Notes under the pieces: model-generated
The model's database searches: none
Told to the model about the DNA's origin: nothing
What the model saw: the letters and a program-made list of their open reading frames with translations, nothing else
Shown: one piece after another, positions 3,920-38,989 of the stretch
Position numbering within the stretch: the stretch's first letter is position 1
Layout of the letters: each line of letters begins with the position of its first letter
Source of the DNA: Escherichia phage fBC-Eco01
Reading direction: 5' to 3' (one strand)
Length of the DNA: 43,466 bases
Sequence record: OM272052.1
Translations under genes and position numbers: made by a program

Positions 3920-3948
3920 ATAGTACCCTATTATATTGGTGTCTGCAA
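3920..3948 (-). promoter_or_regulatory. conserved promoter element copy A (TTGCAG-N17-TACTAT, minus-directed)
   Basis: minus-strand reading TTGCAGACACCAATATAATAGGGTACTATTCAG; matches copies at 6064, 15132, 37795. Confidence 0.45.
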
Positions 3949-3992
3949 ATATTATTTTTATACGTTACACTGGCGGTACTATAGGAGGGCAT

Positions 3993-5036
3993 ATGAGCTT
4001 ACTTACATCTCTAATCAGTCACCAGATATGGCTGCAACGCGCCGCATCCGGTGAAGTGAAAGACCTTACGCCGTTTCTTCAGGAGATGCGGGACGAAATC
4101 AAACGGCAGGTGCTGTTATTCGGCGATGACGGGCGAAGCACCGCGCGACTGAATAAATTGTTACGTGACCTCGAAGAAGCACTAATGGGACTTACAGGCG
4201 ACTGGCAAACAAAGCTGACAGAAGACCTTAAGGAACTGGCGGCGTATGAGGCTGAGTGGAACGTAAAAACGCTGACCACCAACGTAAACGCGGAATTTGT
4301 TACACCTACCGCTGAGCAGGTATGGGCCGCCGCCGAGTTTCAACCGCTCTCATTAAGCGACAAGCCGGTTGATTTCACTAAGCTGATGTCGGGATGGGGT
4401 GAAACCGAAGTAGCACGTCTCGTAACCGGCGTTAAGATGGGCTTTGTGCAAGGTCAGACAACACGGCAGATTGTTAAGAATGTTGTTGGCGCTGGTGGGC
4501 TGGCGGACATATCCGAGCGTAACGCAGCTACGGTAATCCGCACCGCGCTGTCTCACGTATCCAACGAAGCCCGCAACGAGACGTACCGACAGAACGACGA
4601 CATCATCGAGAAGTACGAGTGGGTGTCAACGCTAGACAGCCGTACCAGTACGATTTGTAGGGCCAGAGACGGAATGACGTGGGAAATCGGTAAGGGGCCG
4701 ATGCCCCCGGCCCATTTTGGGTGCCGAAGTACCACGGCACCTGTAATCAGTTCAGAGTTCGACTTCCTCGATAAAGGTGCAAAACGTGCGGCTAAGGGCG
4801 CGGACGGAGGTACTCAGGTAAGCGCAGACACCACTTACTACGAGTTCCTGAAACAACAACCGGCGTGGTTCGTGGACGAAGCACTCGGGCCGACCCGCGG
4901 TAAGATTTTCCGCAACAGCGGTATATCGCCGGAAGAGTTTCGCGTAATATCTGTAGATGGTTTCGGGCGTCCGCTTACTATTAAAGAGATGGCGGAACTC
5001 GATAAACGTGTTGCTGATTATCTGAAAGGGGAATAA
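3993..5036 (+). CDS. head morphogenesis protein (phage Mu F / SPP1 gp7-like minor capsid protein)
   Basis: RBS AGGAGGG before ATG 3993; C-terminal motif TICRARDG...HFGCRS typical of the Mu F family. Confidence 0.8.
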   Translation: MSLLTSLISHQIWLQRAASGEVKDLTPFLQEMRDEIKRQVLLFGDDGRSTARLNKLLRDLEEALMGLTGDWQTKLTEDLKELAAYEAEWNVKTLTTNVNAEFVTPTAEQVWAAAEFQPLSLSDKPVDFTKLMSGWGETEVARLVTGVKMGFVQGQTTRQIVKNVVGAGGLADISERNAATVIRTALSHVSNEARNETYRQNDDIIEKYEWVSTLDSRTSTICRARDGMTWEIGKGPMPPAHFGCRSTTAPVISSEFDFLDKGAKRAAKGADGGTQVSADTTYYEFLKQQPAWFVDEALGPTRGKIFRNSGISPEEFRVISVDGFGRPLTIKEMAELDKRVADYLKGE

Positions 5037-5497
5037 TGATGGGCTTTTTCAAAGTAACCGATGTACCGTCGCGTCGCGTAGTCCAGTACGCCCGCGTGTC
5101 AGGCTCCGGCGAGAACGTGACCTACGTTGAAGATGAAAGTGTACTGGGTACACCTGTAGACGAGATGCCGTATGCAGATAAAACCGGTATTGCGCTACCG
5201 GCGGCGGGGATGCTTTACGAGATTCCGTATCTGGCAGACGCTGGTGACGTGTATTTCTCTGTGCAACCGAAAGACACCGAGCTGGTCGACGGTAGCGCCA
5301 CCATCACCGTCGAAGTTAAGGCAGGTAAAGCGCCGTATGTACTGACCTGGTACAAAGACGGGAAGGAAGTGGTGAACGCCCCGGAAGAGGCTCTGTCTCT
5401 GACTGTTAATGCGGCTGGTGAATACTTCGTTAAAGTTACTGATGCTGATGGGGTAGAGGCGGTAAGCAAGGCGGCGAAGGTTACTAAGCCAGAATGA
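5036..5497 (+). CDS. hypothetical protein, possible Ig-like capsid decoration protein
   Basis: 153 aa, start overlaps upstream stop; beta-rich C-terminal segment resembling Ig-like domains; followed by terminator. Confidence 0.5.
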   Translation: MMGFFKVTDVPSRRVVQYARVSGSGENVTYVEDESVLGTPVDEMPYADKTGIALPAAGMLYEIPYLADAGDVYFSVQPKDTELVDGSATITVEVKAGKAPYVLTWYKDGKEVVNAPEEALSLTVNAAGEYFVKVTDADGVEAVSKAAKVTKPE

Positions 5498-5501
5498 TAA
5501 A

Positions 5502-5528
5502 AGGCCCCGTTAAGGGGCTTTATTTTTA
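5502..5528 (+). terminator. intrinsic terminator
   Basis: GGCCCC-GTTAA-GGGGC hairpin followed by TTTATTTTTAT. Confidence 0.5.
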
Positions 5529-5593
5529 TATGAACATCGCGGTGATAACCGCAGCCGATACCCACAAAACAACATAAAACATCACACTATTTG

Positions 5594-5938
5594 TCATTTG
5601 CATTTCTCGTCGTATGTTTGTTGTAACTGCGACAGACGATTACCGGCTGTCATCTCGTCCATAGAAGGCCCAGCGCCTGTGTCCATAAAGAACAGCGGAA
5701 CAAACAGGAATGCGCCTGTAACACCGAGTACAACGTTAGTACCTATTTGCTTATTAACACGGTGCGTAGCGTTGGCTTGAGCTTGTTTTGTCGTGGCGAT
5801 TCTCGATAGTAACTGATTACATGTTGCCGTTGTATCCCCTGCCTGATAAACCTGTAAAGCTGGGTCTGGCAACGACCTTACGCAACCACTCAAACAAACG
5901 GCTACAACACCTGCTACTGCTAATTTAATATATTTCAT
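5594..5938 (-). CDS. putative lipoprotein (accessory)
   Basis: 114 aa; N-terminal signal with lipobox LSGC (MKYIKLAVAGVVAVCLSGC); hydrophobic segment near C-terminus; antisense to head genes. Confidence 0.6.
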   Translation of the reverse strand: MKYIKLAVAGVVAVCLSGCVRSLPDPALQVYQAGDTTATCNQLLSRIATTKQAQANATHRVNKQIGTNVVLGVTGAFLFVPLFFMDTGAGPSMDEMTAGNRLSQLQQTYDEKCK

Positions 5939-6036
5939 AGTTCGCCATTACCCGTGTCAATGTCACCAATACCACTACAAGCCCAAAGAAACATCACCGC
6001 ATCAACTGCAATTACTACTGAAATAACGACTAACAT
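5935..6036 (-). CDS. small hydrophobic peptide (33 aa), translationally coupled to lipoprotein
   Basis: ATG preceded by strong RBS GAGGAGG at 5 nt; stop TGA overlaps lipoprotein ATG (ATGA); sequence MLVVISVVIAVDAVMFLWACSG... Confidence 0.4.
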   Translation of the reverse strand: MLVVISVVIAVDAVMFLWACSGIGDIDTGNGEL

Positions 6037-6063
6037 GACGGCCTCCTCGGTTCGATAGAATGA

Positions 6064-6092
6064 ATAGTACCCTATTATATTGGGGTGCGCAA
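6064..6092 (-). promoter_or_regulatory. conserved promoter element copy B (TTGCGC-N17-TACTAT, minus-directed)
   Basis: minus-strand reading TTGCGCACCCCAATATAATAGGGTACTATTCA about 27 nt upstream of the small peptide ATG. Confidence 0.5.
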
Positions 6093-6134
6093 ACTATTTG
6101 TTTATGTATTCCAGTTATTCCACTCAATTGTAAA

Positions 6135-6163
6135 TGTTGGAATAAACTATTCGAATAGTTGAC
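6135..6163 (+). repeat. TGTTGGAATAA-N-TATTC-TTGAC motif copy 1 (candidate late promoter/activator site)
   Basis: TGTTGGAATAAACTATTCGAATAGTTGAC; a second copy at 6917-6940 precedes the scaffold gene. Confidence 0.3.
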
Positions 6164-6187
6164 TTTTCACCAAAAATGTGCTAAGCT
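6159..6187 (+). promoter_or_regulatory. candidate sigma70-type promoter (TTGACT-N17-TAAGCT)
   Basis: -35 TTGACT, 17-nt spacer, weak -10 TAAGCT; upstream of terminator-bounded leader and spanin genes. Confidence 0.3.
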
Positions 6188-6193
6188 CCACCT

Positions 6194-6394
6194 GAGCTTG
6201 TGAAGTATGAACAAGCGACCGCGGCGTGGCAGGTAACGGAGCCGGACGTTAAGTCCGAGTGTAGTTACGCTGACGCGTTCGGAAGGGCCATACTCTATTG
6301 CTTGTGTAAAAAGTAACTGGTTTACTGAGATTACGCCGTTTCTATGTTTAAATGATAAGGACTAGCGCCCCGCTTTAAGGCGGGGCTTTACTTA
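6194..6394 (+). ncRNA. candidate ~200-nt non-coding leader/sRNA ending in terminator
   Basis: no ORF longer than about 10 codons between the candidate promoter and the GCCCCGC-TTTAAG-GCGGGGC hairpin; followed by spanin RBS. Confidence 0.25.
6367..6394 (+). terminator. intrinsic terminator / attenuator upstream of spanins
   Basis: 7-bp GC-rich stem GCCCCGC/GCGGGGC followed by TTTACTTA. Confidence 0.5.
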
Positions 6395-6410
6395 TCGAGA
6401 AAGGGGAAAC

Positions 6411-6906: not shown

Positions 6907-6916
6907 TTGCCTTGCA

Positions 6917-7690: not shown

Positions 7691-7692
7691 TA

Positions 7693-11951: not shown

Positions 11952-13118
11952 ATGGCTACAACTCCTTTTAAGGGCGCGAATACCGCGCAATTCTATGTGG
12001 CGGAAGTGACCCCTGGCGTAACACCGACTAACCCGGTCTGGTCGCCGTTGCGTAACACTGGCGGTGTTCCCGCGGTAACCCGCGATGCGCTGACTTCCAA
12101 CGAACTCGACGGCAGCAGAGAAACCACATCCATCCGCACCGGTAACAAACAGGTTAGCGGGGAGTACGCCATCGAACTTAGCTCACGTAGCCAGGATGAT
12201 TTCCTTGCGGGTGCTATGACTTCTACGTGGCAGGACGGGGTAGAGATTACGGGTGCTGAAATTACGGTCGCTCCAGCAGGTAAAACATTCACCCGCGCTG
12301 CCGGTAGCTTCATTACTGACGGTGTAGAGGTTGGCGACCTGATTGCATTCACCGACTTAACCGGCGACAACGCAAAACCGTTTATCGTGACCGCGGTCGA
12401 GGCGCTCGTAGTAACAGGCGCAGGCATTCAGCACACGCTGACAGCAGAGACAAAAACCAGTAAGGCTAAGACCGGGGATAAACTGGAAACCGGTAACGCA
12501 TGTAAGACGTTCTCTATCCTGACATGGTTCAAAGGACAGTGCGGGAACCCTGACGCGTACATGTTGACCAAAGGCGTGGAAATCTCCGGTTTTACTATCG
12601 AGCAGGCCGTGAACGCGATGGTGACAGGCAGCTTCCCGTTCATCGGTCTGAGTCAGGAAATTCTTACCGCGCCGCCAGCAGGTTCCGACTTCTCCCAGGT
12701 TACGTTCACCGATGAGCCGTTCTCGTCTGTAGATGTGTCTGTGTTCGACGGCTCTACTCCGTTGCGTTGCGATACTCTTACCATCACCAACGACAACGGC
12801 GCATCCGCTCAGTTTGAACTAGGGAACAGTAGCGTTGCGTTCGTGGAACGTGGTCGCGCAGCTAACACCTTCTCCATCTCTGGGAAGCTGTACGACATGG
12901 CGATGATTCAGAAGTTTATCAACGAGCAGCAGGTAGAGATTAACTCTATTCTGGCGGGGGTGAACGGGGCTATGTCTTTCAGTTTGAAACGCGCAGAACT
13001 TACGGCTGTTACGCCAGAAATATCTGGCCCGGAATCAATTACGCAAAGCATAGAAGGACAGTCCACAGGCAATCAATATCAATCTTCTATTGTTATCCAG
13101 CGTATCACCTACGCATAA
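11952..13118 (+). CDS. major tail protein (putative)
   Basis: ATG 11952 with RBS AAGAGG at 8 nt; 389 aa; last gene before terminator and tail chaperone/tape measure genes. Confidence 0.55.
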   Translation: MATTPFKGANTAQFYVAEVTPGVTPTNPVWSPLRNTGGVPAVTRDALTSNELDGSRETTSIRTGNKQVSGEYAIELSSRSQDDFLAGAMTSTWQDGVEITGAEITVAPAGKTFTRAAGSFITDGVEVGDLIAFTDLTGDNAKPFIVTAVEALVVTGAGIQHTLTAETKTSKAKTGDKLETGNACKTFSILTWFKGQCGNPDAYMLTKGVEISGFTIEQAVNAMVTGSFPFIGLSQEILTAPPAGSDFSQVTFTDEPFSSVDVSVFDGSTPLRCDTLTITNDNGASAQFELGNSSVAFVERGRAANTFSISGKLYDMAMIQKFINEQQVEINSILAGVNGAMSFSLKRAELTAVTPEISGPESITQSIEGQSTGNQYQSSIVIQRITYA

Positions 13119-13122
13119 AACT

Positions 13123-13147
13123 AAGGCCCCGAAAGGGGCCTTTTTCT
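13123..13147. terminator. bidirectional intrinsic terminator
   Basis: AGGCCCC-GAAA-GGGGCCT hairpin with A-run upstream and T-run downstream; ends both the + tail transcript and the - accessory operon. Confidence 0.6.
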
Positions 13148-13320
13148 TATTCCTTCAATTGCATAGGGTAGAAGTTAACGAGTTCTCCTTTATCCCGAAG
13201 CCGTGAATATTCATCTAACGCATCTTCCCGGCTACTTACAGCATAGATATCATTCCACTCGTCCCATTCTTCGTCATATACACGGATTACGTATATTGTT
13301 TTCATTACATTCTCACTCAT
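13147..13320 (-). CDS. hypothetical protein (accessory operon gene 5)
   Basis: internal ATG 13320 or 13305 preferred over track start 13362 to avoid a 50-nt overlap; acidic, W-rich small protein. Confidence 0.4.
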   Translation of the reverse strand: MSENVMKTIYVIRVYDEEWDEWNDIYAVSSREDALDEYSRLRDKGELVNFYPMQLKE

Positions 13321-13543
13321 CAATGTTGCTTCGATACTCCCGTAACTTCTCCAGACTTTCAATTGCTTCCGCTAAGTCGGTTCCGGTGTCCTTGTGCCCG
13401 CGAAGGCCCATACACAACAGCTTCTTCAATGCGTGCTGTAGCGCCGGGTCCCGGATATCGAAGGCGCGGAGCACATCATAAACATCTACTGTCATAGTGC
13501 TGCCGTGGGTATTTGTCATTGTGCGGTTGTATTTATTTGTCAC
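13313..13543 (-). CDS. hypothetical protein (accessory operon gene 4)
   Basis: 76 aa; GTG start with weak RBS; motif VDVYDVLRAF...ALKKLL; family not identified. Confidence 0.45.
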   Translation of the reverse strand: MTNKYNRTMTNTHGSTMTVDVYDVLRAFDIRDPALQHALKKLLCMGLRGHKDTGTDLAEAIESLEKLREYRSNIDE

Positions 13544-13733
13544 TGTTAACTCTCTTAAATCGGGCTATGCCTGACTCGTTAATGCTGCCTATTTCAAAGA
13601 AGCTGCGATATTTAGGCGAATACATTCTTACGTCGCCGTTCTCTAGGGCGACCCCTTCATATACAGCGCCTACTTCGAATCCATTTTTCTCCGCGTACGG
13701 ACTCACATCGGTGCATTCATACATATCTTTCAT
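13533..13733 (-). CDS. hypothetical protein (accessory operon gene 3)
   Basis: 66 aa; ATG overlaps upstream stop (translational coupling); RBS GGAG. Confidence 0.5.
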   Translation of the reverse strand: MKDMYECTDVSPYAEKNGFEVGAVYEGVALENGDVRMYSPKYRSFFEIGSINESGIARFKRVNSDK

Positions 13734-14860
13734 CCCAGCATCTCCGGTGAAATAGTTAAACGTGCGACCTCGCCATATTCGGCACTATAGGTAATTACAT
13801 TTGCGCTACGGCCTGACATCCATCCACCGCGCGAGGCGTAGGCGTCTTTAGCCGCCAGGGTGCGGTGTTGCTCAACAATCATGTTACGGCTTTCTACAAT
13901 CTTCTGGTGGTGCAGATGGCCTACGTGGGCGTAGCTGTAAACACTCTCGCCGAACGCTTTACGGAACTTGGCAATCATTACCGGTTCGATAGCGTCGAAT
14001 CGCGCCTTATGCCCGTGGTGAAAGAACAGCGTAGTTTTGCCGTGTTGGACCATCTTGTAAACATCCGGCGACGTATCGACGAACACACGCGGCTCATTGT
14101 CGTACAGCGTACTAAACATCTCAGCTAACCAAATCATTCCGCTTTCGTCGTGGTTCCCTTGCACGATAAGCAAGCGAACAGATTTATGCTTAACCAGCGC
14201 CATGTCAACAACACGTCGTACCATACGAATCATGTAGCGCACCAGTTTCTGATAGCGAGTATCGGCGTCCAATACATGACCACTCGCTGGCGTAACCGCA
14301 TCCAGACTATCGAAGTGCGCGAAGTCACCCAGCAGGTTAATAACCCCAGTTCCTGCATCTGGTGCTTTCTGAAACGCCGCATCGAACCATCGGGAGAACA
14401 GGTCTTCCGCAATCTTCATATCCCAGTCGTCGCCGCTCTCGTCAGCCCAGGCCAGCATACCAAGATGGAAATCAGATACCGTGTACAGATTGAGTAGTTT
14501 ATCGTCGCGTTTGGCTCGAGTCGCTTTAACCGGCGCAACTGGCGTAATCTCCGACTTCATTCCTTCGATCACGGCTTTCATTAACTCGACCTGACGTTCG
14601 GCGTCGGTGTCTGTCTTAACCCATTGCAACTTAGTGTTGCCGAACTCGTCCACCAGTGACGACGTTCCTTTAATTTTGTAGCCGTCCGGGACAAGATGGC
14701 TAACGTCACGACCGTGACCTACGCCTTTCTTCGCCAGCTTCGCTTTACGGATACGAATAACTCGGTCTGAGATGCCGTATTTACGGGATATGTCGATAAT
14801 CTTTGTTCCGGCGTTCAATTCTTCCTGTAACTGTTCGTCGGTTATTTTCTTCCGGGCCAT
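13730..14860 (-). CDS. HTH domain - calcineurin-like metallophosphoesterase fusion protein
   Basis: 376 aa; N-terminal helix-turn-helix-like segment (IIDISRKYGISDRVIRIRKAK); phosphoesterase motifs in order DFH, GDFAHFD, GNHDE, GH, GHLHH; RBS GAGGAAG. Confidence 0.75.
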   Translation of the reverse strand: MARKKITDEQLQEELNAGTKIIDISRKYGISDRVIRIRKAKLAKKGVGHGRDVSHLVPDGYKIKGTSSLVDEFGNTKLQWVKTDTDAERQVELMKAVIEGMKSEITPVAPVKATRAKRDDKLLNLYTVSDFHLGMLAWADESGDDWDMKIAEDLFSRWFDAAFQKAPDAGTGVINLLGDFAHFDSLDAVTPASGHVLDADTRYQKLVRYMIRMVRRVVDMALVKHKSVRLLIVQGNHDESGMIWLAEMFSTLYDNEPRVFVDTSPDVYKMVQHGKTTLFFHHGHKARFDAIEPVMIAKFRKAFGESVYSYAHVGHLHHQKIVESRNMIVEQHRTLAAKDAYASRGGWMSGRSANVITYSAEYGEVARLTISPEMLG

Positions 14861-14898
14861 GCTTACTTCCTCGTGTTTAGGATTTGTCCTATACTAGC

Positions 14899-15090
14899 TC
14901 ACTTCTCTTTGACATTCGAGTTGCAAGCCCAGATTAAAATAAATACCCACGGCAGCAGAACCCAGCCGAGAAACAGATTAGCCATGAATATCGCCAGTTT
15001 CGCTTTATGTCCGCGCATATGGGCCACTAAAAACGGGATAAAATAAACTAAAACGATAATGATTAAGAAGAACATAGTAATACCTGTCAT
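14899..15090 (-). CDS. superinfection immunity-like small membrane protein (Imm-like)
   Basis: 63 aa from ATG 15090 with RBS AGGAG; two hydrophobic helices with RGHKAK...NLFLGW...PW motif as I recall it for the Imm-like family. Confidence 0.5.
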   Translation of the reverse strand: MTGITMFFLIIIVLVYFIPFLVAHMRGHKAKLAIFMANLFLGWVLLPWVFILIWACNSNVKEK

Positions 15091-15131
15091 GGTGTAGCTC
15101 CTGTTTGAGTTAACATTGTTGGTGTAAGTGA

Positions 15132-15160
15132 ATAGTATCCTATTATGTTGGGGTGCGCAA
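15132..15160 (-). promoter_or_regulatory. conserved promoter element copy C (TTGCGC-N17-TACTAT, minus-directed)
   Basis: minus-strand reading TTGCGCACCCCAACATAATAGGATACTATTCAC, 28 nt identical to copy D. Confidence 0.5.
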
Positions 15161-25345: not shown

Positions 25346-25469
25346 ACCTTAGACACCTATCAAGCCGTAGCGCGCCAAGCACCCCGCCAACGCGCACGAT
25401 AAAACCCCTACGTTTTGTTTCAGCCCATGTGAAAATACCGGTTTCAGGGCCGTATGATACCTTGCTCAT
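25344..25469 (-). pseudogene. HNH homing endonuclease N-terminal remnant (41 codons)
   Basis: ORF MSKVSYGPETGIFTW... overlapping helicase stop (ATGA); N-terminal motif matches the two intact HNH genes but the HNH core is absent. Confidence 0.4.
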
Positions 25470-26896
25470 TTCTTACTCCTACGTTTCATATACTCAAGGA
25501 GGATATCCTGCACCTGTTTTTTCTCGTCTGTGCGTGAAGTGACAACAGAATCCAACGTATCTTTAGCAATAATCTTGTAGATAAAAACAGGCCGATTATA
25601 CCCCGATTGCTTTTGCCGTACTGGCCCTATGCGCTCTACCACCTGTAAATAGTGTTCGAGGTTCCACCCCTGACTGAAAAACGCCATATGATGGCCGCCG
25701 TCTTGTAGCGATATGCCGTGGCCGGCTGACGCGGGGTGGACGCATAAGATTTCAATTTCACCACGGTTCCACGCTTCCATCTGCTTATTACCCTTCGCAC
25801 CTTTGGCAAACGCCTGTGCTTGTGGGAATCGCTTAAGGATACGCTCCAGTTCGTGCTTAAACTGATAGGCCACCAGTAACGGCGCGCCCTGTAGCTCCTC
25901 AACAATGGACTCAAGCGCATCAAGTTTCGTGTCGTGCACTTTCTCCCAGTCTTTCGATGCCTCGCCGTCCGGCCCGGACACATACACGGCACCGGATGCA
26001 ATCTGCAAACACTTCGACGTCTTCGCTGCGGCGTTAGCGGCTTCAACTTCTCCGCTCTCCAGTTCTGCGAATAGCTTCTCCTCCATATCTATGTACGCCT
26101 GACGCGCTTTCTTCGGCAGGTCGATTTCGACCGGTACAATAATCGGCGCTTCGCAACCGAACCACTCGGCGGCGTCAATCGTGAGACTAATGTCCTTCAT
26201 CTTCTGATGAATTTCATTATCCGCACCCGGGCGGGCGTGGTACTCGCGCGCCATAGCCGATTTGCCTTTCTGTACCGAGTTAAACCAGCGGTCGGTGAAT
26301 GCTGTGTACGAAGAACCGAGGCGCTCACCCGCGTCGATAAACCAGTTCTGGCCCCACAAGTCCTTGAGGCCGTTTGGTGATGGTGTACCTGTCAGGTTGA
26401 TGAAACGCTTAACCTTACCGAACGCCACTTTACTAAGTGCCTTTGCCCTCTTGCTACCACCTGAACGGCTGCGGAACGATTTCAGCTTCGTGCTCTCATC
26501 AGCAACGATAACCGTAAAAGGCCAGTCGTCTTTGCCGTAGTAGTCAATAAGCCACTCGATAACTTCGTAGTTCGCGCACACCACGTTAGCGTCCGACTCC
26601 AGCGCCGCGATGCGGCGCTTCTCTGAACCGGTCGCATCTACGACGCGCAGACACGGGAAACCCCACTTAGTTTGTTCTGCGGGCCACGTACCGGAGGCAA
26701 CGCGCAACGGGGCGAGTATCAGCACTCGGTCGTCGTCCGTAAGTTGACCGTTGCGGAACAGGCGGTTAAGAACCCACATTGTCGACGAGGTCTTGCCGCC
26801 GCCCATACCGCACCAGATATTGCAACGTGGGTGCTGTAGCATGAACGAAGTCATGAGCTTCTGGTACTCTCGACGGATAAATTTAGACATGTTCAA
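25466..26896 (-). CDS. superfamily II DNA helicase (SNF2/DEAD-like)
   Basis: 476 aa; Walker A GMGGGKT, DExx-like VADEST motif. Confidence 0.8.
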   Translation of the reverse strand: MNMSKFIRREYQKLMTSFMLQHPRCNIWCGMGGGKTSSTMWVLNRLFRNGQLTDDDRVLILAPLRVASGTWPAEQTKWGFPCLRVVDATGSEKRRIAALESDANVVCANYEVIEWLIDYYGKDDWPFTVIVADESTKLKSFRSRSGGSKRAKALSKVAFGKVKRFINLTGTPSPNGLKDLWGQNWFIDAGERLGSSYTAFTDRWFNSVQKGKSAMAREYHARPGADNEIHQKMKDISLTIDAAEWFGCEAPIIVPVEIDLPKKARQAYIDMEEKLFAELESGEVEAANAAAKTSKCLQIASGAVYVSGPDGEASKDWEKVHDTKLDALESIVEELQGAPLLVAYQFKHELERILKRFPQAQAFAKGAKGNKQMEAWNRGEIEILCVHPASAGHGISLQDGGHHMAFFSQGWNLEHYLQVVERIGPVRQKQSGYNRPVFIYKIIAKDTLDSVVTSRTDEKKQVQDILLEYMKRRSKK

Positions 26897-27087
26897 TCCT
26901 TAACGTAGAGTACCAGCTCTTTACGCCCGAACGCGGTAACGTTGCCTGTTACATCTTCGATAACCAGTTTACCGTTTGACTCGACGAACACAGTATCAAC
27001 GGCAACAGGCTGGCGGGTCTTAACGTTGAAAATCATGTCGCCAGGTACGATGTCACGCGCGGGTTTGCGGTCATATTCGTGTTTCAT
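26893..27087 (-). CDS. hypothetical protein
   Basis: 64 aa; ATGA overlap with helicase; RBS AAGGA. Confidence 0.5.
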   Translation of the reverse strand: MKHEYDRKPARDIVPGDMIFNVKTRQPVAVDTVFVESNGKLVIEDVTGNVTAFGRKELVLYVKD

Positions 27088-27117: not shown

Positions 27118-27402
27118 CTAACTATAATAGTTTGCTATTATGTCGTCAACCTGTTTGAACGAGCCGACGACAAAAACATTTGCACCACGTTTACGCATCC
27201 GTTCGTGTTCGCGTAACTGGTGTGGGTCTGGCTTCGTGTTTTCGTCTTTCTTGACCTCAACGAACCAGATGATGCCGCCGGGTAGAAGCACTAAGAGGTC
27301 GGGAGCGCCCACTCTATTTTCGTACGACAATTTGCGTACGAGGCCCCCCAGGGCCTCGAATCGCTCTTTTGCGTATTTCTGAATCTTGCCCTCCGGGGTC
27401 AT
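27118..27402 (-). CDS. VRR-NUC domain nuclease
   Basis: 94 aa; motif PDLLVLLPGGIIWFVEVKK characteristic of VRR-NUC (PD-(D/E)XK-type) proteins. Confidence 0.65.
   Translation of the reverse strand: MTPEGKIQKYAKERFEALGGLVRKLSYENRVGAPDLLVLLPGGIIWFVEVKKDENTKPDPHQLREHERMRKRGANVFVVGSFKQVDDIIANYYS
27121..27149 (-). promoter_or_regulatory. sigma70 consensus-like promoter (TTGACG-N17-TATAGT, minus-directed)
   Basis: minus-strand reading TTGACGACATAATAGCAAACTATTATAGT; overlaps the 3' end of the VRR-NUC gene. Confidence 0.5.
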
Positions 27403-30607: not shown

Positions 30608-30623
30608 TCTGACTCCGGTAAAA

Positions 30624-30641
30624 AGGCCCAATGATGGGCCT
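30624..30641 (-). terminator. intrinsic terminator (minus-directed) between SSB-like gene and HNH gene
   Basis: AGGCCCA-ATGA-TGGGCCT hairpin followed on the minus strand by TTTTACC. Confidence 0.5.
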
Positions 30642-30661
30642 TAGTTAAATTGATTCAGATA

Positions 30662-31288
30662 TTAGCGGCGGCGACGTTCGCGGCGCGGAGCTTCATCTTC
30701 TTCGTCATCTTCCAGGTCGTCGACGCTTGCCGCGACTTTAGAACCGCCAAACGCTTTACCTTCGCCGACGTATTTAATCGCCAGCAGATTAACACCGAGA
30801 ACTTTGTATTTCTGGCTGAACCAGATTTCAATGCTTACGTTAGCGACGCAGCCGCTGTAAACCTGTTCACCTTCAATCTGCTCGCCGTCTACATTGAAGT
30901 CCTGCTCTACCTGAGTCTCGCCTTTTTTAGAGGTTACAATCAGTGGCTGTTTCTGAGCTTTCGCTTTGAAGTAGAAGCCTTCCGGGAAGTCTTCAAACGG
31001 ATTGTCGCGCTCGGCAATGTCCTTAATCGCGCATTTATCCATGTGCTTACCTTCGCCGTAGTTGGACTTCATCCATTTCTCGGCGGCGGCTGCACCTAAC
31101 GCTTCTTCAACTACAGCGTAAACAGTGTCGTAGAGCGCATCGATTTGAGCATGGTCAGACGGCAGGATGATAGTCGCGCTGTACTGGCCTTTAGTGATTG
31201 AGCCATCATCGTTTTCACGGTCTTTTTCACGTTCGAATACGTTAACCCAAGCAGTGTTTACTTTACGCAGATTTAATTTCAGTCCCAT
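30662..31288 (-). CDS. DUF2815-like putative ssDNA-binding protein
   Basis: 208 aa; strongly acidic C-terminal tail DDLEDDEEDE as in SSBs; genomic context next to DNA polymerase and DUF2800 nuclease. Confidence 0.55.
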   Translation of the reverse strand: MGLKLNLRKVNTAWVNVFEREKDRENDDGSITKGQYSATIILPSDHAQIDALYDTVYAVVEEALGAAAAEKWMKSNYGEGKHMDKCAIKDIAERDNPFEDFPEGFYFKAKAQKQPLIVTSKKGETQVEQDFNVDGEQIEGEQVYSGCVANVSIEIWFSQKYKVLGVNLLAIKYVGEGKAFGGSKVAASVDDLEDDEEDEAPRRERRRR

Positions 31289-31341: not shown

Positions 31342-31370
31342 ACTATAATAGCTAACTATTCAGGTGTCAA
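31342..31370 (-). promoter_or_regulatory. sigma70 consensus promoter (TTGACA-N17-TATAGT, minus-directed)
   Basis: minus-strand reading TTGACACCTGAATAGTTAGCTATTATAGT upstream of the SSB-like gene. Confidence 0.5.
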
Positions 31371-31603
31371 CCCTTCCAGCCAGTTATTTTCTCAACTATG
31401 GTTATGTATACGTCAGGCCACTTCAAATTACGCACCCACTCAACTTCTTTGGCATACACCAACTCCTCTAGTTCTATTTTCCTGCACTTAAATGCGGTAT
31501 ACACGAAAAACGGAAGAAGCATTATGGCCAGCGGCAGTATTAGCGCGTGATAAGTTAAAAACGCCACAAAACCACCAATTACTCTGAACATTTTACGAAT
31601 CAT
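31367..31603 (-). CDS. small membrane protein
   Basis: ATG 31603 with RBS GAGGAGG at 7 nt and ATGA overlap; hydrophobic N-terminal half. Confidence 0.4.
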   Translation of the reverse strand: MIRKMFRVIGGFVAFLTYHALILPLAIMLLPFFVYTAFKCRKIELEELVYAKEVEWVRNLKWPDVYITIVEKITGWKG

Positions 31604-32841
31604 TCTAAATCCTCCTCTGTTGCCTGATTCCACTCAGGACGTTTGTCGTCTGCCGTTGCGACACATGGTGCGCCCGGCTTACGGGTAATGAAGTCTTTCA
31701 GTTCTTCTTCCGGTATAATTTTAACCGCTTCGGTAGGCGTCATGATAACTTCTTTAGTCAGCTTGTCGCCGTAGAGTTCTGCCACTTTCTCCGCGTCTTT
31801 CCACGCACGATTACCCGGCCTACCTTCAACCAGCTTGTACCCCGGAACTTTCTTACCGGAATGCAGCGAGGCAGCCATAGCTTTTTCAACCTTTTCGATG
31901 TGCTGGCGCAACAACGGCAACTTCTCATACTCAGCTACGAGTTGCTCCGGCGTCAGTTCCAGCGCAAAGTCGTCCTCCAGTTCTTCCGCCAGCACCGCGT
32001 TAACGGTTTTTGTACGCGCTGCGCACTGTTCAGAGAACCGGCACCACTGACAACCATCGACCGACGGCTTAAAGTCCGACGCTTTCAGGTTCTTCTTGCC
32101 GCGGGAATACGCATCTAACGCTAACAGTGCCCGTTTCCGCGCAAACTTAGCGAACAGTTCCAGACCTTCAACCGAGATGTCCCACTCCGACGCACCACCA
32201 GCGTACGGCTGGAAGATGACCAGACGAACCGTTGTTACGTTATAGCGTCGCTTGAGTCTGCGATAAACACCGAGAGCATAGAGCATAAGCTGCTTGTTCT
32301 CTTTCGCTTCGACACGATGTCGTCCTGTTTTCAGGTCGCCGATAATTAGCATGTGCTCTTCGGTGTTCGCCAGTTCCTGGACGGCAACAAGGTCAGCGGT
32401 TCCGAACGTCTCGACACCTTCGTAACCAGGATGCAACACCTCAGTAAGATTGACACGCATTTCCAGCTTAGCGTAAGTCGCTACATCGATAATCGCTTTG
32501 CAGTAGTCTGTGTACTTGCGAACCTGCTCAATCATATCCGCCGTAATCAGTACTGCGCCTTTCATCGGACTGATTAGCGCCTTAATCTGGCCTTTACCCT
32601 CATCCAGCACGTAGGCACCGACTTCACGTTCTAACGGCAACGCAGTGCCTTTGATGTACTGGTTTAAGTGCATCTCAGCTATGGTGTGCATGGCTGTTCC
32701 TAATACCGCGGCTTTACCTGACGTGTTAGGAATATCTTTTTCACAGGCCAGTGATGCCGCGCAACTTAGCCAACGTTTACTACTGGAAGGTGATAACAAT
32801 GAATGTTCGTCGTTACTCCCGCTTCTGCCCTTAATTTTCAT
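31600..32841 (-). CDS. DUF2800-like PD-(D/E)XK nuclease with Cas4-like Cys cluster
   Basis: 413 aa; N-terminal Cys (RWLSCAASLACEK) plus C-terminal CQWCRFSEQC arrangement typical of Cas4/RecB-type Fe-S nucleases. Confidence 0.65.
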   Translation of the reverse strand: MKIKGRSGSNDEHSLLSPSSSKRWLSCAASLACEKDIPNTSGKAAVLGTAMHTIAEMHLNQYIKGTALPLEREVGAYVLDEGKGQIKALISPMKGAVLITADMIEQVRKYTDYCKAIIDVATYAKLEMRVNLTEVLHPGYEGVETFGTADLVAVQELANTEEHMLIIGDLKTGRHRVEAKENKQLMLYALGVYRRLKRRYNVTTVRLVIFQPYAGGASEWDISVEGLELFAKFARKRALLALDAYSRGKKNLKASDFKPSVDGCQWCRFSEQCAARTKTVNAVLAEELEDDFALELTPEQLVAEYEKLPLLRQHIEKVEKAMAASLHSGKKVPGYKLVEGRPGNRAWKDAEKVAELYGDKLTKEVIMTPTEAVKIIPEEELKDFITRKPGAPCVATADDKRPEWNQATEEDLE

Positions 32842-33648: not shown

Positions 33649-34146
33649 TTATTCTTCTTCGAAATACTTGTTCTTGATTGCCGTCAGGCGTTCCAGGTAC
33701 TCGGCCAGGTCTTCGTCCTTAATCGCGGCAATCTTCATCTTCTTACCGGTGAACTCTTCCAGCAGTTCATCAGACTCGTCACACGCGGCATCGCTCGGGC
33801 CTTCGTTAATTGCATCGTCGATAGCCTGAATCTGGTCACGCAGAGATTGGTAATCTACTTCTTTTTTCTCTTCTTCCGGCTCTGGCGTCGGTTCCTCTGC
33901 TTTAGCTTTACGCGTCTTGCGTTTCGGCTTCTCTTCCTCCGCAGGTTTAGTGTCAACGACGTCTTCACCTTCAACCGTGATTTCTTTTGCTTCTTCGGCG
34001 CACTCGCCCGCCGCTTTTTTGGTATACACTACTGTCTCTACTTCCAGCGGCGCATCGGCATGAACAACTTGTTTTGCACTGTTCGCAGCAATCAGTTCAT
34101 GCGCAACTACGAAACGTTCCAGTAATTTTAAGAATTGGTCTAACAT
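33649..34146 (-). CDS. hypothetical acidic protein with central KR-rich patch
   Basis: 165 aa; RBS GAGGAGA at 7 nt; first gene behind strong promoter. Confidence 0.5.
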   Translation of the reverse strand: MLDQFLKLLERFVVAHELIAANSAKQVVHADAPLEVETVVYTKKAAGECAEEAKEITVEGEDVVDTKPAEEEKPKRKTRKAKAEEPTPEPEEEKKEVDYQSLRDQIQAIDDAINEGPSDAACDESDELLEEFTGKKMKIAAIKDEDLAEYLERLTAIKNKYFEEE

Positions 34147-34177: not shown

Positions 34178-34206
34178 ACTATAATAGCGAACTACTCACA
34201 TGTCAA
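34178..34206 (-). promoter_or_regulatory. sigma70 consensus promoter (TTGACA-N17-TATAGT, minus-directed)
   Basis: minus-strand reading TTGACATGTGAGTAGTTCGCTATTATAGT in the divergent region next to the HTH gene. Confidence 0.5.
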
Positions 34207-34270
34207 TGGGCTTTTCTAAAATAATTAATATGGTACTATTCACATATCAACTGACTAAGGAGTAATTGAC

Positions 34271-34486
34271 ATGCAACCATCTGAACTAGGCATCCGTGTA
34301 GAACAACGCCGCAAAGAACTCGGCATCTCCCAGCGCCGTCTGGCTGTCCTGACTGGCGTTTCCCAGGGCGCGATTAACCAACTGGCACTTGGGGTAACTC
34401 AGGACGTCCGCCCGGTGACGCTGTTTAAACTGGCGGAAGTGCTGGAAGTAGACGCCAAATGGCTGGCGTTTGGTGAAGGGGCTTAA
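34271..34486 (+). CDS. XRE-family helix-turn-helix transcriptional regulator (Cro/CI-like)
   Basis: 71 aa; HTH signature ISQRRLAVLTGVSQGAINQLA; RBS AAGGAG; own terminator. Confidence 0.7.
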   Translation: MQPSELGIRVEQRRKELGISQRRLAVLTGVSQGAINQLALGVTQDVRPVTLFKLAEVLEVDAKWLAFGEGA

Positions 34487-34502
34487 CGCCCCTTTCTTTT
34501 TA
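34477..34502 (+). terminator. intrinsic terminator after HTH gene
   Basis: AGGGGC-TTAAC-GCCCCT hairpin followed by TTCTTTTT. Confidence 0.55.
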
Positions 34503-36711: not shown

Positions 36712-36836
36712 TTCTTTTTCTCCGCACGTTCTAAGGCTTCCTGCATACGGCGCATTGCGCGGTTCATCTTTACCGGTGCGAAGAAATCAGCGCCGTGTTT
36801 CTGGCGGCGTAGCTGTGGAACTATTAACTTTGTCAT
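36708..36836 (-). CDS. small basic protein (42 aa)
   Basis: ATG with RBS AAGGA at 7 nt; stop overlaps primase ATG. Confidence 0.3.
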   Translation of the reverse strand: MTKLIVPQLRRQKHGADFFAPVKMNRAMRRMQEALERAEKKK

Positions 36837-36876
36837 TGTATAATCCTTATGCTTACTTTGATGATTTGTACTTTAA

Positions 36877-36908
36877 CCCCAACGTTCTGGCGTTGGGGTT
36901 TCTTTTTA
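36877..36908 (+). terminator. plus-oriented intrinsic terminator-like hairpin
   Basis: CCCCAACG-TTCTGG-CGTTGGGG followed by TTTCTTTTT on the + strand, inside a - strand operon. Confidence 0.4.
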
Positions 36909-37196
36909 CCGGTTTGCTAACTCACCCAGCAAATTTTTATACTCTTCAAAATAATCCGCAACCAAATCATCGCCGAAATAGAAGTCGATATACTCGAGAT
37001 TATCTCTTACGTTAAGCGACGCCGACATGGTGCTTAGCTGGCGTAAGCTAATTAGCTTCATTTCTGTTTCTACGCAGAAAGGCCGGTAGGTATCAAGGTG
37101 GCAAGAGATGTTGAAGCATAGGGCGAACTCTCCAACCACGGAGTGAACCATATACACTTCGTTTTCTGCTTTATTGTGGAAAATTACACCTTTCAT
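36906..37196 (-). CDS. hypothetical protein
   Basis: 96 aa; ATGA overlap with upstream HTH gene. Confidence 0.5.
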   Translation of the reverse strand: MKGVIFHNKAENEVYMVHSVVGEFALCFNISCHLDTYRPFCVETEMKLISLRQLSTMSASLNVRDNLEYIDFYFGDDLVADYFEEYKNLLGELANR

Positions 37197-37375
37197 TTCA
37201 CATTCTCCTTAATCCACGCTTCAACTTTATTACGGTCAAATGTTCCTGGTAAACGGCGACCCATAACTTTAATACAGCAGTCAGGGAATTTACCACTGCG
37301 CAACCAGTTATTAATTGTCTGGCGTGTCACCCCAATACGCTCAGCTACTTCATTCTGTGTCATGTAATGTTGCAT
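37193..37375 (-). CDS. helix-turn-helix DNA-binding protein (AlpA/Xis-like)
   Basis: ATG 37375 with RBS AGGAGA at 8 nt; HTH segment TQNEVAERIGVTRQTINNWLRSGKFP. Confidence 0.55.
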   Translation of the reverse strand: MQHYMTQNEVAERIGVTRQTINNWLRSGKFPDCCIKVMGRRLPGTFDRNKVEAWIKENVK

Positions 37376-37396
37376 TTCTATATCTCCTGTTTGTTT

Positions 37397-37425
37397 GGTG
37401 GAGCTGAGTATAGGATAGCGGGGAT
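37397..37425 (-). promoter_or_regulatory. candidate promoter for leftward replication operon (TTGCTT-N17-TATACT)
   Basis: minus-strand reading TTGCTTTTACATCCCCGCTATCCTATACT, about 20 nt upstream of the HTH gene. Confidence 0.45.
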
Positions 37426-37472
37426 GTAAAAGCAACCAATCCCTGCTATATTTAATCTTTACAAAAAAGTTA

Positions 37473-37502
37473 TTGAAAGTTCTTGACACATGTTTGTATA
37501 AT
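37473..37502 (+). promoter_or_regulatory. strong sigma70-like promoter (TTGAAA-N18-TATAAT)
   Basis: perfect -10 TATAAT, good -35; no ORF downstream before terminator at 37702. Confidence 0.5.
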
Positions 37503-37508
37503 GGTTTT

Positions 37509-37729
37509 GGGACTTGTATATATTACGGAGTTGACGAACCCTCCCCGAGGGATTCGTCAACCCCTCCCAGACAACTGAGATGCTTGCCTTGGGGTTTAAG
37601 GATAAGTGTATCTAAATCTCATTTAAAGAAGTAACCCGCTGAAATATCTACTGTTTCTTAATGTGCCGTAGATTCGCAACCGTAAAAATGTAACGATTAT
37701 TGGGCAGGCTTAAGGCCTGCCCTTTAGTT
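37509..37729 (+). ncRNA. candidate ~220-nt non-coding RNA
   Basis: bounded by TTGAAA-N18-TATAAT promoter and GGGCAGGC-TTAAG-GCCTGCCC terminator; 5' region holds a 14/15-bp hairpin; no RBS-led ORF. Confidence 0.3.
37702..37729 (+). terminator. intrinsic terminator
   Basis: 8-bp GC-rich stem GGGCAGGC/GCCTGCCC followed by TTTAGTT. Confidence 0.55.
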
Positions 37730-37794
37730 ACCAAGTAATAAGAATAAAGGCACAACCTTCCCTAAAGAATCACAACGGCAACGTAACTAATCTC

Positions 37795-37823
37795 TTGCAC
37801 ACCCCAACATAATAGGATACTAT
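37795..37823 (+). promoter_or_regulatory. conserved promoter element copy D (TTGCAC-N17-TACTAT, plus-directed)
   Basis: TTGCACACCCCAACATAATAGGATACTATTCAC upstream of the rightward small-gene cluster. Confidence 0.5.
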
Positions 37824-37857
37824 TCACGTATCGGGACGAGACAGAGGAGTGAGGGTT

Positions 37858-38043
37858 GTGTTTAAGAAGGGTCAGTTGGCGAAAACTAAACGCGGCGGAC
37901 AGTACGTAATAGTTACCCAGGACGAGGATGAATTTAGTATCGCTGTAGACGTATGGGGGCTTGTACGAAAGAAACATGGTTACGCTTTCCGCGATAATTT
38001 AAAACTCATCGGCAACAATTTTAAATTCAAAGGGGCGAAGTGA
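37858..38043 (+). CDS. hypothetical protein
   Basis: GTG 37858 with RBS GAGGAG at 8 nt; 61 aa. Confidence 0.5.
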   Translation: MFKKGQLAKTKRGGQYVIVTQDEDEFSIAVDVWGLVRKKHGYAFRDNLKLIGNNFKFKGAK

Positions 38044-38282
38044 TGCAAATCATAATTACGGATAACACAGTTGCCTACGAAAAAGGTGGCGACAATACTC
38101 TGGAAAGAATAGGCGTAAATATAGGTGACGTTTTTGATGTGCTTGGTACTGTATCGGGCGGCTGGTGGATTAAGGTTGGATGCAACAAAGTGCCAGTAAC
38201 TAAGGCCGAAGCGGAAATATACACAACGGCATCGAATCATGATGCTCGTGTCGACGACTCTGAGGGAGGTTGCCGTGAATAA
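38043..38282 (+). CDS. hypothetical protein
   Basis: ATG overlapping upstream stop; 79 aa. Confidence 0.5.
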   Translation: MQIIITDNTVAYEKGGDNTLERIGVNIGDVFDVLGTVSGGWWIKVGCNKVPVTKAEAEIYTTASNHDARVDDSEGGCRE

Positions 38283-38315
38283 TATTTTAACCGTTTATGT
38301 GGTACGGGGGTTGGT

Positions 38316-38459
38316 ATGAGAGAAGCATTTGAACGGTGGGCTGTCGTCGAGGGTCTGCCGGTTAACAAAGGTTCGAAGAAAGAGTACCTGAACGTTAAGA
38401 CGCGTCTCGCGTGGCGGGCGTGGAAAGCCGGTGTGCAATATGCGATGAATACGAGGTGA
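38316..38459 (+). CDS. hypothetical small protein (47 aa)
   Basis: ATG with RBS GGGGG at 5 nt; Trp- and Lys-rich. Confidence 0.35.
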   Translation: MREAFERWAVVEGLPVNKGSKKEYLNVKTRLAWRAWKAGVQYAMNTR

Positions 38460-38462
38460 TTT

Positions 38463-38648
38463 ATGGGTGAGTGGATTAAGTGTAGTGAGCGGATGCCGGA
38501 GCCTTATGAATACGTTCTTGTAACTGATTGTTTTGTTGGCTGTGAGGTTATGCGTGTTAATTCAGATGGCTACTGGGGGCCCGCAAAGAGTTTATATCAC
38601 GGTGATATAACGCACTGGATGCCGTTACCTGAGCCGCCGGAGGTGTGA
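38463..38648 (+). CDS. DUF551-like protein
   Basis: 61 aa ending ...GDITHWMPLPEPPEV, the C-terminal signature I associate with phage DUF551 proteins. Confidence 0.5.
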   Translation: MGEWIKCSERMPEPYEYVLVTDCFVGCEVMRVNSDGYWGPAKSLYHGDITHWMPLPEPPEV

Positions 38649-38782
38649 TGTTCAATAGTTTGGGATTTTACTGAGTGACTTACGCTGCTACACAGCAGCG
38701 TACAACTTTAGATTAGTGTCGTCAAAAAGCGACACTTTCACCAAACGCAACAATCGAAGCGACTATTGCAGGAGATGCAACA

Positions 38783-38953
38783 ATGAAACTGAATGACATC
38801 GTAACCTGGACCGGTAGAAACGGAGAAAAGCGATTCGGGCTTATTGTTGCGTCAGACGGCAGCAAGTACTGCGTTATGCGATGGCGTCAGTGGGCACGAC
38901 GCCCGAGGTACTACTGGATTCGTGGCGAACGATTATCTTTAAAACACCAATAA
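38783..38953 (+). CDS. hypothetical small protein (56 aa)
   Basis: ATG with RBS AGGAGA at 8 nt; preceded by two short hairpins. Confidence 0.4.
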   Translation: MKLNDIVTWTGRNGEKRFGLIVASDGSKYCVMRWRQWARRPRYYWIRGERLSLKHQ

Positions 38954-38960
38954 AATTTAC

Positions 38961-38989
38961 TTGCACGCTGGGATAGAATAGACTACTAT
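38961..38989 (+). promoter_or_regulatory. promoter element variant (TTGCAC-N17-TACTAT, plus-directed)
   Basis: TTGCACGCTGGGATAGAATAGACTACTATTCATC; same -35/-10 and downstream TTCA as copies A-D, divergent spacer. Confidence 0.5.

Follow-up and report, generated by a model that had tools for sequence, protein, structure and literature searches.

A repeated promoter palindrome in Escherichia phage fBC-Eco01 and its possible recognition by a Cro-like protein

Why should a virulent phage carry near-identical promoter elements in front of separate sets of genes? The stretch of DNA considered here (the window, 43,466 bp) is the complete genome of Escherichia phage fBC-Eco01 (OM272052.1), which is about 90% identical to the genomes of Kagunavirus phages, virulent E. 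coli siphoviruses of the subfamily Guernseyvirinae. A preliminary description of this sequence pointed to a promoter-like element of about 33 bp at five loci, and proposed that it might also be an operator for a phage regulator or a recombination hotspot. Which part of the element is conserved, which polymerase reads it, and what protein, if any, binds to it? As described below, the real conserved unit is a 14-bp palindrome, AATAG-N4-CTATT, and not the 33-mer. It is highly probable that this palindrome is an operator for some phage-encoded regulator. With moderate confidence we favor a more specific reading, namely that the elements are sigma-70 promoters, each with a 14-bp operator repressed by the Cro-like protein encoded at 34271-34486, in a phage that has no CI.

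A 14-bp palindrome as the conserved unit

Inspection of each locus bore out the five copies at the positions and on the strands first reported; they are delimited here as 3917-3948, 6061-6092 and 15129-15160 on the minus strand, and 37795-37826 and 38961-38992 on the plus strand. A genome scan for TTGCRC-N17-TACTATTCA with up to two mismatches gave exactly five sites against 0.09 expected. The hexamer pair TTGCRC-N17-TACTAT, which all the copies had been said to share, is present in the five with a single mismatch (TTGCAG) in the copy at 3917-3948. The copies at 15129-15160 and 37795-37826 are indeed identical over 28 nucleotides (nt), and 95% identical over 37 nt, and the inverted repeat AATAG-N4-CTATT is seen in all the five. 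These loci are thus real, but the set is incomplete. If the search is confined to the 3′ half of the element, or to the inverted repeat by itself, the core is also recovered at 27126-27139, 31347-31360, 34183-34196, 34227-34240 and 41749-41762, and an additional weaker copy of the palindrome appears at 6154-6167. With one mismatch allowed, AATAG-N4-CTATT has 11 matches in the genome against 1.12 expected, while in 100 shuffled sequences, a control proposed from the beginning, no shuffle gave more than three. Ten of the 11 sites are intergenic, and the exception, 27126, lies in the last codons of the upstream open reading frame (ORF). In an unbiased enumeration of short palindromes, AATAG-N4-CTATT ranked first in fBC-Eco01 and also in phages Bas72, K1G and Jersey. 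It is often extended to ATAATAG-N4-CTATTAT.

Conservation was followed in 30-40 orthologous copies for each of seven sites, the loci being fetched via the helix-turn-helix (HTH) protein and whole genomes being added. Since these sequences are related, the percentages are only descriptive. In the palindrome arms, 0-1.3% of cells differ from the consensus; for the flanks the figure is 7-15%, and for the central N4 it is 5-19% at five of the seven sites. The two exceptions, with hardly any change in N4, are 34227, which lies in a region conserved throughout, and 41749, whose N4 belongs to the -35 hexamer. Sequence and length both vary in the linker that joins the -35 hexamer to the palindrome. 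Conserved outer bases with a free center are the pattern that a dyad bound by a dimer would be expected to leave. The spacer had been called almost invariant, and this has to be divided into two parts: ATAATAG..CTATT appears to be the functional layer, but ACCCCAA is common to only four paralogous copies and is replaced in the copy at 38961, which points to common descent or gene conversion. In several relatives (loci L005 at 14750, L006 at 14567, L015 at 13351, and others) a perfect AATAG-N4-CTATT stands in a repeated context, ggtgtaacaggtc...ttt, about 4.6 kb right of the cro-like gene; this context is absent from fBC-Eco01 and may lie within a coding region.

The motif itself is already published for this genome, and the new part is its reinterpretation as a Cro-type operator. 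Seven of the sites are listed as 'Phage RNAP promoters' in Supplementary Table S2 of the fBC-Eco01 genome paper (Arch Virol 2023, PMC9825357), a table whose positions agree exactly with those of the window; they were detected via PHIRE with the consensus tgAATAGTa-ccTATTat-T and were labelled PP1-PP7, with starts at 3917, 6061, 15129, 27124, 34223, 37807 and 38973. The orthologous seven sites are listed in the genome paper of VB_EcoS-Golestan (PMC7203180), and both papers ascribe them to a phage-encoded RNA polymerase (RNAP). Sites 31347, 34183 and 41749 are missing from the PHIRE lists, and neither the dyad symmetry nor a link to the cro-like gene is mentioned (PMC9825357, PMC7203180). Several orthologous sites are annotated as sigma-70-like promoters in the GenBank record of phage Jersey. 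A literature search found no described operator or Cro function for Guernseyvirinae.

Promoters that carry the palindrome in different registers

When the palindromes of all the sites are superimposed and each site is read toward the gene that it faces, three arrangements become apparent. Class A comprises the five copies first described, with TTGCRC-N17-TACTAT and the palindrome from -19 to -6, so that its center falls at -12.5. On the minus strand these are 3917-3948 (TTGCAG-N17-TACTAT, palindrome AATAGGGTACTATT at 3919-3932; PP1), 6061-6092 (TTGCGC-N17-TACTAT, palindrome at 6063-6076; PP2) and 15129-15160 (palindrome at 15131-15144; PP3), and on the plus strand 37795-37826 (TTGCAC-N17-TACTAT, palindrome at 37811-37824; PP6) and 38961-38992, whose spacer is divergent (palindrome at 38977-38990; PP7). 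In class B, found on the minus strand at 27121-27149, 31342-31370 and 34178-34206, the sequence is TTGAC(A/G)-N17-TATAGT and the palindrome lies in the spacer from -25 to -12, centered at -18.5. The first of them (TTGACG-N17-TATAGT; PP4) contains a perfect palindrome, ATAATAGTTTGCTATTAT, with its core at 27126-27139. The other two, absent from the list of the genome paper, have TTGACA-N17-TATAGT, matching the consensus at 11 of 12 positions, with palindromes at 31347-31360 and 34183-34196; the arm of the latter reads AGTAG in fBC-Eco01 and AATAG in most relatives. Class B promoters score 10-11 of 12 against the sigma-70 consensus with a 17-bp spacer, and of the four strongest matches in the right half of the genome they account for three. 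In class C the palindrome is centered on a TTGACT -35 hexamer, at about -33.5. This class consists of the plus-strand site 41749-41782, where ACTAGTTGACTATT, with one mismatch, is centered on the -35 of TTGACT-N17-TATATT (41754-41782), and possibly of 6154-6187, also on the plus strand, where AATAGTTGACTTTT, again with one mismatch, overlaps the -35 TTGACT of the promoter 6159-6187 (HP1 in PMC9825357); it is uncertain whether the latter belongs to the family.

The sequence agrees with a promoter reading. The paired hexamers stand 17 bp apart, within the 16-18 bp typical of sigma-70 promoters, in intergenic gaps, and every site is aimed at a ribosome-binding site and an ORF on the same strand 25-45 nt downstream. 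The orthologue of the 15131 promoter in phage Jersey reads TTGCAT-N17-TATTAT, with its palindrome moved by 3 bp relative to both hexamers. Because the palindrome occupies different registers, and because it is shifted by 3 bp in Jersey at a constant hexamer spacing of 17 bp, it is an element distinct from the hexamers read by RNA polymerase. In every case it overlaps the core promoter, as a repressor site would be expected to do. The view that the element stands in each case before accessory or early gene sets proved too narrow, as the palindrome is found also in the promoters of replication operons and on the -35 of two rightward promoters.

Are these sites then promoters of a phage-encoded RNA polymerase or sigma factor, as the published label implies? 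In favor of this, PHIRE reported them as phage-specific promoters in two genomes (PMC9825357, PMC7203180). However, the motif is a dyad that occurs in three registers and is accompanied by sigma-70 hexamers at 17 bp, and not an asymmetric sequence in a fixed register. Ten large ORFs scanned (366-876 aa) gave no match to RNA polymerase or sigma factor, being structural, replicative or without such a match; one large ORF outside that scan (608-1858, 416 aa) is the large terminase by alignment to annotated close relatives. Likewise, no sigma- or RNAP-related PHROG was found among ten unannotated early and cassette proteins scanned, and the curated annotation of Bas72 lists no RNA polymerase. Since the gene content covered in this way shows no RNA polymerase, the published attribution is unsupported; we take a phage polymerase or sigma factor to be contradicted by gene content and regard this explanation as extremely improbable.

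Another possibility is that the palindrome consists of back-to-back -10 hexamers (ATAATA / TATTAT) driving divergent or antisense transcription. Each arm does read like a -10 on its own strand, and the plus strand of class B sites includes a perfect TATAAT. Nevertheless, most copies lack a -35 at 16-18 bp from the second hexamer, several offer it no gene to transcribe (for example, transcription would run antisense into 31367-31633), and the hexamers truly 17 bp from a -35, TACTAT and TATAGT, are offset by 2-3 bp from the arms. Such bidirectional promoters are thus very unlikely.

It is also conceivable that no regulator is involved at all, that a good promoter cassette was recently duplicated or spread by gene conversion, and that the inverted repeat is incidental to an AT-rich, -10-like sequence. 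Indeed, four class A copies have 30-45 nt in common, including the non-palindromic ACCCCAA, and the arms overlap -10-like hexamers (TATAAT, TATTAT, TACTAT). What speaks against this idea is that classes B and C have only the palindrome in common with class A, that G5 and C10 in the arms are invariant while no -10 consensus demands them, that the left arm in class B lies at -25 to -21, a region unread by sigma-70, and that the arms stay the same from genus to genus while N4 and the linkers change. We therefore consider it unlikely that the palindrome is there by accident.

Some other candidates were set aside. A role of the inverted repeat at the RNA level is rejected, as the repeat lies upstream of the predicted start in all the classes; Rfam found nothing in the fBC-Eco01 genome. 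Sigma-32 and sigma-S promoters do not fit in spacing and key bases, as judged by eye against their consensus sequences. The alternative -10 TATAAT in the class A spacer has no -35 at 16-18 bp.

A Cro-like protein as the candidate regulator

What protein could recognize such a dyad? Two HTH proteins had been noticed in the genome, and both are encoded where they were placed: a 71-aa HTH_3 protein at 34271-34486 on the plus strand, followed by a terminator at 34475-34495, and a 60-aa HTH_17 protein at 37193-37375 on the minus strand, inside a longer ORF, 37193-37489. The former, the product of the proposed repressor gene, matches Pfam HTH_3 with an E value of 1e-11. Its best sequence match in PDB is Cro of phage 434, which is also of 71 aa (E 4e-6 over residues 6-68, nearly the full length), and a single-sequence AlphaFold model (predicted local distance difference test score, 81) has 2cro as its best fold match, with template modelling scores of 0.73/0.79. 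By tblastn, the family is found in Kagunavirus (94-100% identity), Jerseyvirus (about 50%; 49-51% between Kagunavirus and Jerseyvirus), Cornellvirus-like phages (about 41%; 41-43% in Cornellvirus), and in temperate phages as well. Two of the temperate ones, Klebsiella phage GZ7 and Enterobacter phage CobraSix, have the homologue in the position of cro, between cI and cII. The adjoining control regions contain 14-bp dyads, ACAAACAAGTTTGT of the 434 type (ACAA-N6-TTGT) in GZ7 and three ACAG-N6-CTGT sites in CobraSix, which match AATAG-N4-CTATT in geometry (14 bp, with the outer 4-5 bp specific) and in having A at position 1. A glutamine at the first position of helix 3 is invariant across this Cro-like family. 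In 434 complexes, it is this glutamine that contacts A1.

The surroundings of the gene point in the same direction. In the 124-bp divergent region beside it there are two palindromes, one in the strong leftward promoter 34178-34206 and the other, the imperfect AATATGGTACTATT at 34227-34240 on the plus strand (PP5), on the extended -10 of the gene itself, TGgTACTAT (hexamer at 34234-39), about 30 nt upstream of the cro-like gene. The latter is a putative autoregulatory operator, and the arrangement looks like a usual autoregulatory layout. The gene divergent from the cro-like gene belongs to a family of unknown function, phrog_3127. Published annotations of these virulent phages name the 71-aa gene 'transcriptional repressor', 'DicA' or 'repressor'; together with the label 'excisionase' on the HTH_17 gene, such names can wrongly suggest a temperate lifestyle.

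A comparison with Cornellvirus provides another hint. Orthologous promoters in this genus have a symmetrically altered palindrome, the 18-mer ATATTA-N6-TAATAT, which is the top palindrome in phages SP-031 and TS6, and the Cro-like protein is the only HTH protein that fBC-Eco01 has in common with them. A symmetrical change of the operator alongside the divergence of the Cro-like protein would be covariation, but this is only suggestive, because the Cornellvirus sites are AT-rich with more degenerate inner bases and their right arm is often the -10 hexamer TAATAT itself. This reservation belongs to a group of observations that weigh against the Cro-like protein, or against the full extent of its proposed regulon. 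Kagunavirus and Jerseyvirus have the same operator, yet helix 3 of their Cro-like proteins differs (SQGAINQ vs SQSLITH). The hexamers of class A are weak (7-8 of 12) and fall below the threshold of a standard consensus scan, though their spacer is always 17 bp. No palindrome is seen in what appears to be the promoter of the leftward primase-helicase operon, and the regulon is therefore incomplete. Finally, the HTH_17 protein is 70-80% identical between Kagunavirus and Jerseyvirus, which share the palindrome, so that on this criterion it fits at least as well as the Cro-like protein.

Could the sites, then, be operators for another protein, either HTH_17 or a host factor? The HTH_17 gene adjoins the rightward class A promoters. 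However, HTH_17 is not detectable in Cornellvirus genomes, which still carry palindrome promoters together with the Cro-like protein; the 5-4-5 geometry matches operators of Cro homologues; and the HTH_17 gene, the first of a leftward operon, has no palindrome at its own promoter. In addition, HTH_17/Xis-type proteins usually bind as monomers to direct repeats and not to 14-bp dyads. We consider a binder other than the Cro-like protein rather unlikely. As to the leftward operon, a weaker promoter on the minus strand within 37400-37445, TTGCTT-N17-TATACT, without palindrome, seems to start the HTH_17/primase-helicase operon, which may thus escape the proposed regulation.

Among the ideas put forward at the beginning, that of an operator appears to be the best supported: the palindrome is common to otherwise different promoters, its arms are kept while its center varies, and a homologue of 434 Cro is encoded with two sites in its own region. 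From promoter anatomy, conservation, protein homology and fold we infer binding, repression (that is, the sign of regulation) and timing as follows. Early in infection, host sigma-70 polymerase would initiate at all these promoters. The Cro-like protein would be made early from its own weakly operated promoter and would accumulate, and its dimer would bind the single operator at each promoter. The operator would cover the -10 (center -12.5), the spacer with the upstream edge of the -10 (-18.5), or the -35 (about -33.5), and since it overlaps one of these elements, the bound protein would exclude RNA polymerase. In this way about ten early and middle units might be damped, comprising three replication operons, rightward operons of small genes, and minus-strand accessory cassettes inside the structural module. 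No CI-like gene or integrase was found in fBC-Eco01 or its annotated relatives; because the phage lacks a CI repressor and an integrase, such a circuit would be a lytic-cycle 'turn-off' without a CI partner, resembling the action of lambda or 434 Cro on PL and PR. The only RNA-seq paper on a Kagunavirus gives timing at the gene level only, and its text places an HTH gene among four early genes, which could not be mapped to 34271 (PMC12645636).

How does this candidate system compare with those already known? With phage 434 Cro it shares a 71-aa HTH_3 protein of the 434 Cro fold, a 14-bp dyad with conserved outer bases and a variable, uncontacted center, sites over core promoters including that of the regulator itself, A at position 1 opposite the conserved glutamine at the start of helix 3, and, in GZ7 and CobraSix, homologues in cro position beside such operators. 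It differs in that fBC-Eco01 has no CI partner, no integrase and no tripartite OR/OL arrays, carrying instead single operators over about ten promoters of a virulent genome, and in its half-site, AATAG against ACAA of 434; here the operator is a predicted one. For the same reasons (no CI, integrase or tripartite OR/OL, and a single operator per promoter) a lambdoid immunity region with a bistable CI-Cro switch is rejected. The C1 repressor of phage P1 and gp71 of mycobacteriophage L5, which are unrelated proteins, act at many dispersed operator or 'stoperator' sites, asymmetric ones, for the maintenance of lysogeny. The likeness to them is that one regulator would serve many short sites before separate transcription units, while fBC-Eco01 is virulent and its site is a dyad inside the core promoter. 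Thus, judged by its sequence, the element has the features of a 434-type Cro operator embedded in sigma-70 promoters.

Transcription units, accessory cassettes and recombination

Which genes would come under such control? The class B promoters head the helicase operon, an operon starting with the gene for a single-stranded DNA (ssDNA)-binding protein, and the exonuclease operon. That at 27121, which lies in the final codons of ORF 27118-27402, serves 26893-27087 together with the SNF2 helicase gene 25466-26896; that at 31342 serves 30662-31288, which encodes the ssDNA-binding protein, and probably the gene for DNA polymerase as well; and that at 34178 serves the leftward operon from 33649-34146 onward, divergent from the cro-like gene. 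Rightward, the class A promoter at 37795 drives the small genes 37849-38953, that at 38961 drives genes from 39021 onward, and the class C promoter at 41749 drives 41816-43404. The three remaining class A promoters face minus-strand cassettes. The target of 3917 is the gene 3371-3892, of the PHROG 'RusA-like resolvase' family, which ends at a bidirectional terminator, 3346-3366; those of 6061 are a short ORF starting at 6036 and the gene 5594-5938, ending at a terminator at 5501-5521; and that of 15129 is a cassette running from 15090 to 13147, including the metallophosphoesterase gene 13730-14860, with a terminator at 13123-13142.

Several further observations were made around these units. 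A leader, AACGAGA(G/C)(A/G)GAGGAG, is conserved in the 5′ untranslated regions (5′UTRs) after 34178, 37826, 38992 and 41782, and a related leader occurs in Cornellvirus genomes. At 6146-6161 there is a tight palindrome, AACTATTCGAATAGTT, equivalent to two half-sites turned inside-out, of which the weak site at 6154 forms a part. It overlaps the -35 of the promoter 6159-6187, heading spanin, scaffold and capsid genes, and is kept in Bas72 and K1G; it might offer the regulator a second way of binding, here to a late promoter. The region 37376-37795 is a non-coding gap of 420 bp with a near-consensus sigma-70 promoter, TTGAAA-N18-TATAAT at 37473-37502 on the plus strand, which has no Cro-type palindrome, and a strong terminator at 37702-37722. 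The RNA of about 220 nt between them has a fold of -72 kcal/mol (z = -4.6) and no match in Rfam, and is a candidate for a phage small RNA or a regulatory leader. At the genome end, 43437-43466 continuing into 1-27, a promoter-like TGTACA-N18-TATAAT lies directly after a terminator at 43405-43443 and shortly upstream of the gene for the small terminase; on a circular or concatemeric reading of the genome, it could serve as a late promoter.

The minus-strand inserts 3337-3991, 5528-6106 and 13115-15160 are promoter-gene-terminator units between conserved structural genes. The first two, each with a bidirectional terminator at its far end, are missing or exchanged in Bas72 and K1G. Bas72 carries other DNA in place of 5528-6060 and becomes homologous again precisely at 6061, where the motif has its downstream edge; its cassette has the promoter and 5′UTR of the 3917 copy before a different ORF. 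From K1G that cassette is missing altogether. Four class A copies have TTGCRCACCCCAAYAT, and up to 45 nt, in common. As this segment is missing from the copy at 38961 and from all the class B and C sites, its identity is best explained by copying of a promoter-plus-5′UTR cassette and not by function. A near-identical family of bidirectional terminators (AAAAGGCCCC-loop-GGGGCCTT) occurs at 3344-3379, 5499-5534, 13115-13145 and 30620-30655, where it closes minus-strand cassettes and separates convergent units. Also, a near-palindrome, TATAGTATGCTATT, lies at 3333-3350 of Bas72 (L001) and at 2775-2794 of Golestan, immediately after the portal-gene terminator, at the place taken in fBC-Eco01 by the 3337-3991 cassette, and might be the remnant of a cassette promoter that was lost.

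Do the elements exist, in the first place, for recombination, the promoter together with terminators acting as a homology patch for the exchange of accessory cassettes? The differences among Bas72, K1G and fBC-Eco01, the exact junction at 6061, the terminator family that bounds the cassettes, and the loss of homology at the upstream edge of the -35 at 31370 in 29 of about 37 loci are in accord with this. However, breakpoints are only mildly enriched: 5.0% of 932 internal ends of high-scoring segment pairs from 40 loci, events that are not phylogenetically independent, lie 40 bp or less from a site, 2.9% being expected. The excess is almost wholly due to the one junction at 31370 (site 31347), and around six of ten sites breakpoints within 40 bp are absent or nearly so. 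A primary role in recombination would also leave the dyad symmetry, the class B and C sites, and the sites beside the cro-like gene unexplained, and recombination could be a side effect of conserved sequence; we regard such a role as quite improbable. Of the hotspot idea there thus remain one swap that ends at the motif edge and one variable gene that abuts a -35, while breakpoints are not generally concentrated at the sites. The elements do delimit exchangeable modules, and the case for their being preferred crossover points is thin.

Two kinds of known mobile arrangement are worth comparing here. Lambdoid morons are promoter-gene-terminator cassettes, classically defined as being expressed from a repressed prophage. 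The minus-strand cassettes of fBC-Eco01 resemble them in having their own promoter and terminator, in lying between structural genes, and in being present, absent or swapped in relatives, but lysogeny plays no part here, and the cassette promoters have their operator in common with the replication promoters, so that they appear to be wired into the lytic program. The PeSL (promoter-early stem-loop) of T4-type phages is a repeated promoter-containing sequence that flanks variable accessory ORFs and provides homology for shuffling. The fBC-Eco01 element is likewise repeated, contains a promoter, flanks variable accessory ORFs and can serve as homology, whereas its shuffling is limited to one or two junctions, and it has dyad symmetry and a candidate cognate repressor.

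As a repressor acting on a dyad operator within a promoter is textbook knowledge, the conceptual gain of these considerations is modest. Still, phages of Kagunavirus and Jerseyvirus are widely isolated for therapy and biocontrol and are small chassis for engineering, while their transcription program is little characterized. The reading as Cro-gated sigma-70 promoters corrects the published 'phage RNA polymerase promoter' label and yields a testable map of about ten transcription units, and the small regulator-operator pair would be usable for the control of inserted genes. It would also explain why 'repressor' annotations in virulent phages need not mean lysogeny. Beyond this, one may speculate, with considerable doubt, that this virulent family has kept only the Cro half of a 434-type switch, that the operator has spread to essentially every early and middle promoter to make a timer of one protein, and that promoter, operator and 5′UTR together with a bidirectional terminator form a portable 'expression socket', at which recombination shuffles accessory genes. 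If that were true, an accessory gene placed in such a socket would join the temporal program of the phage.

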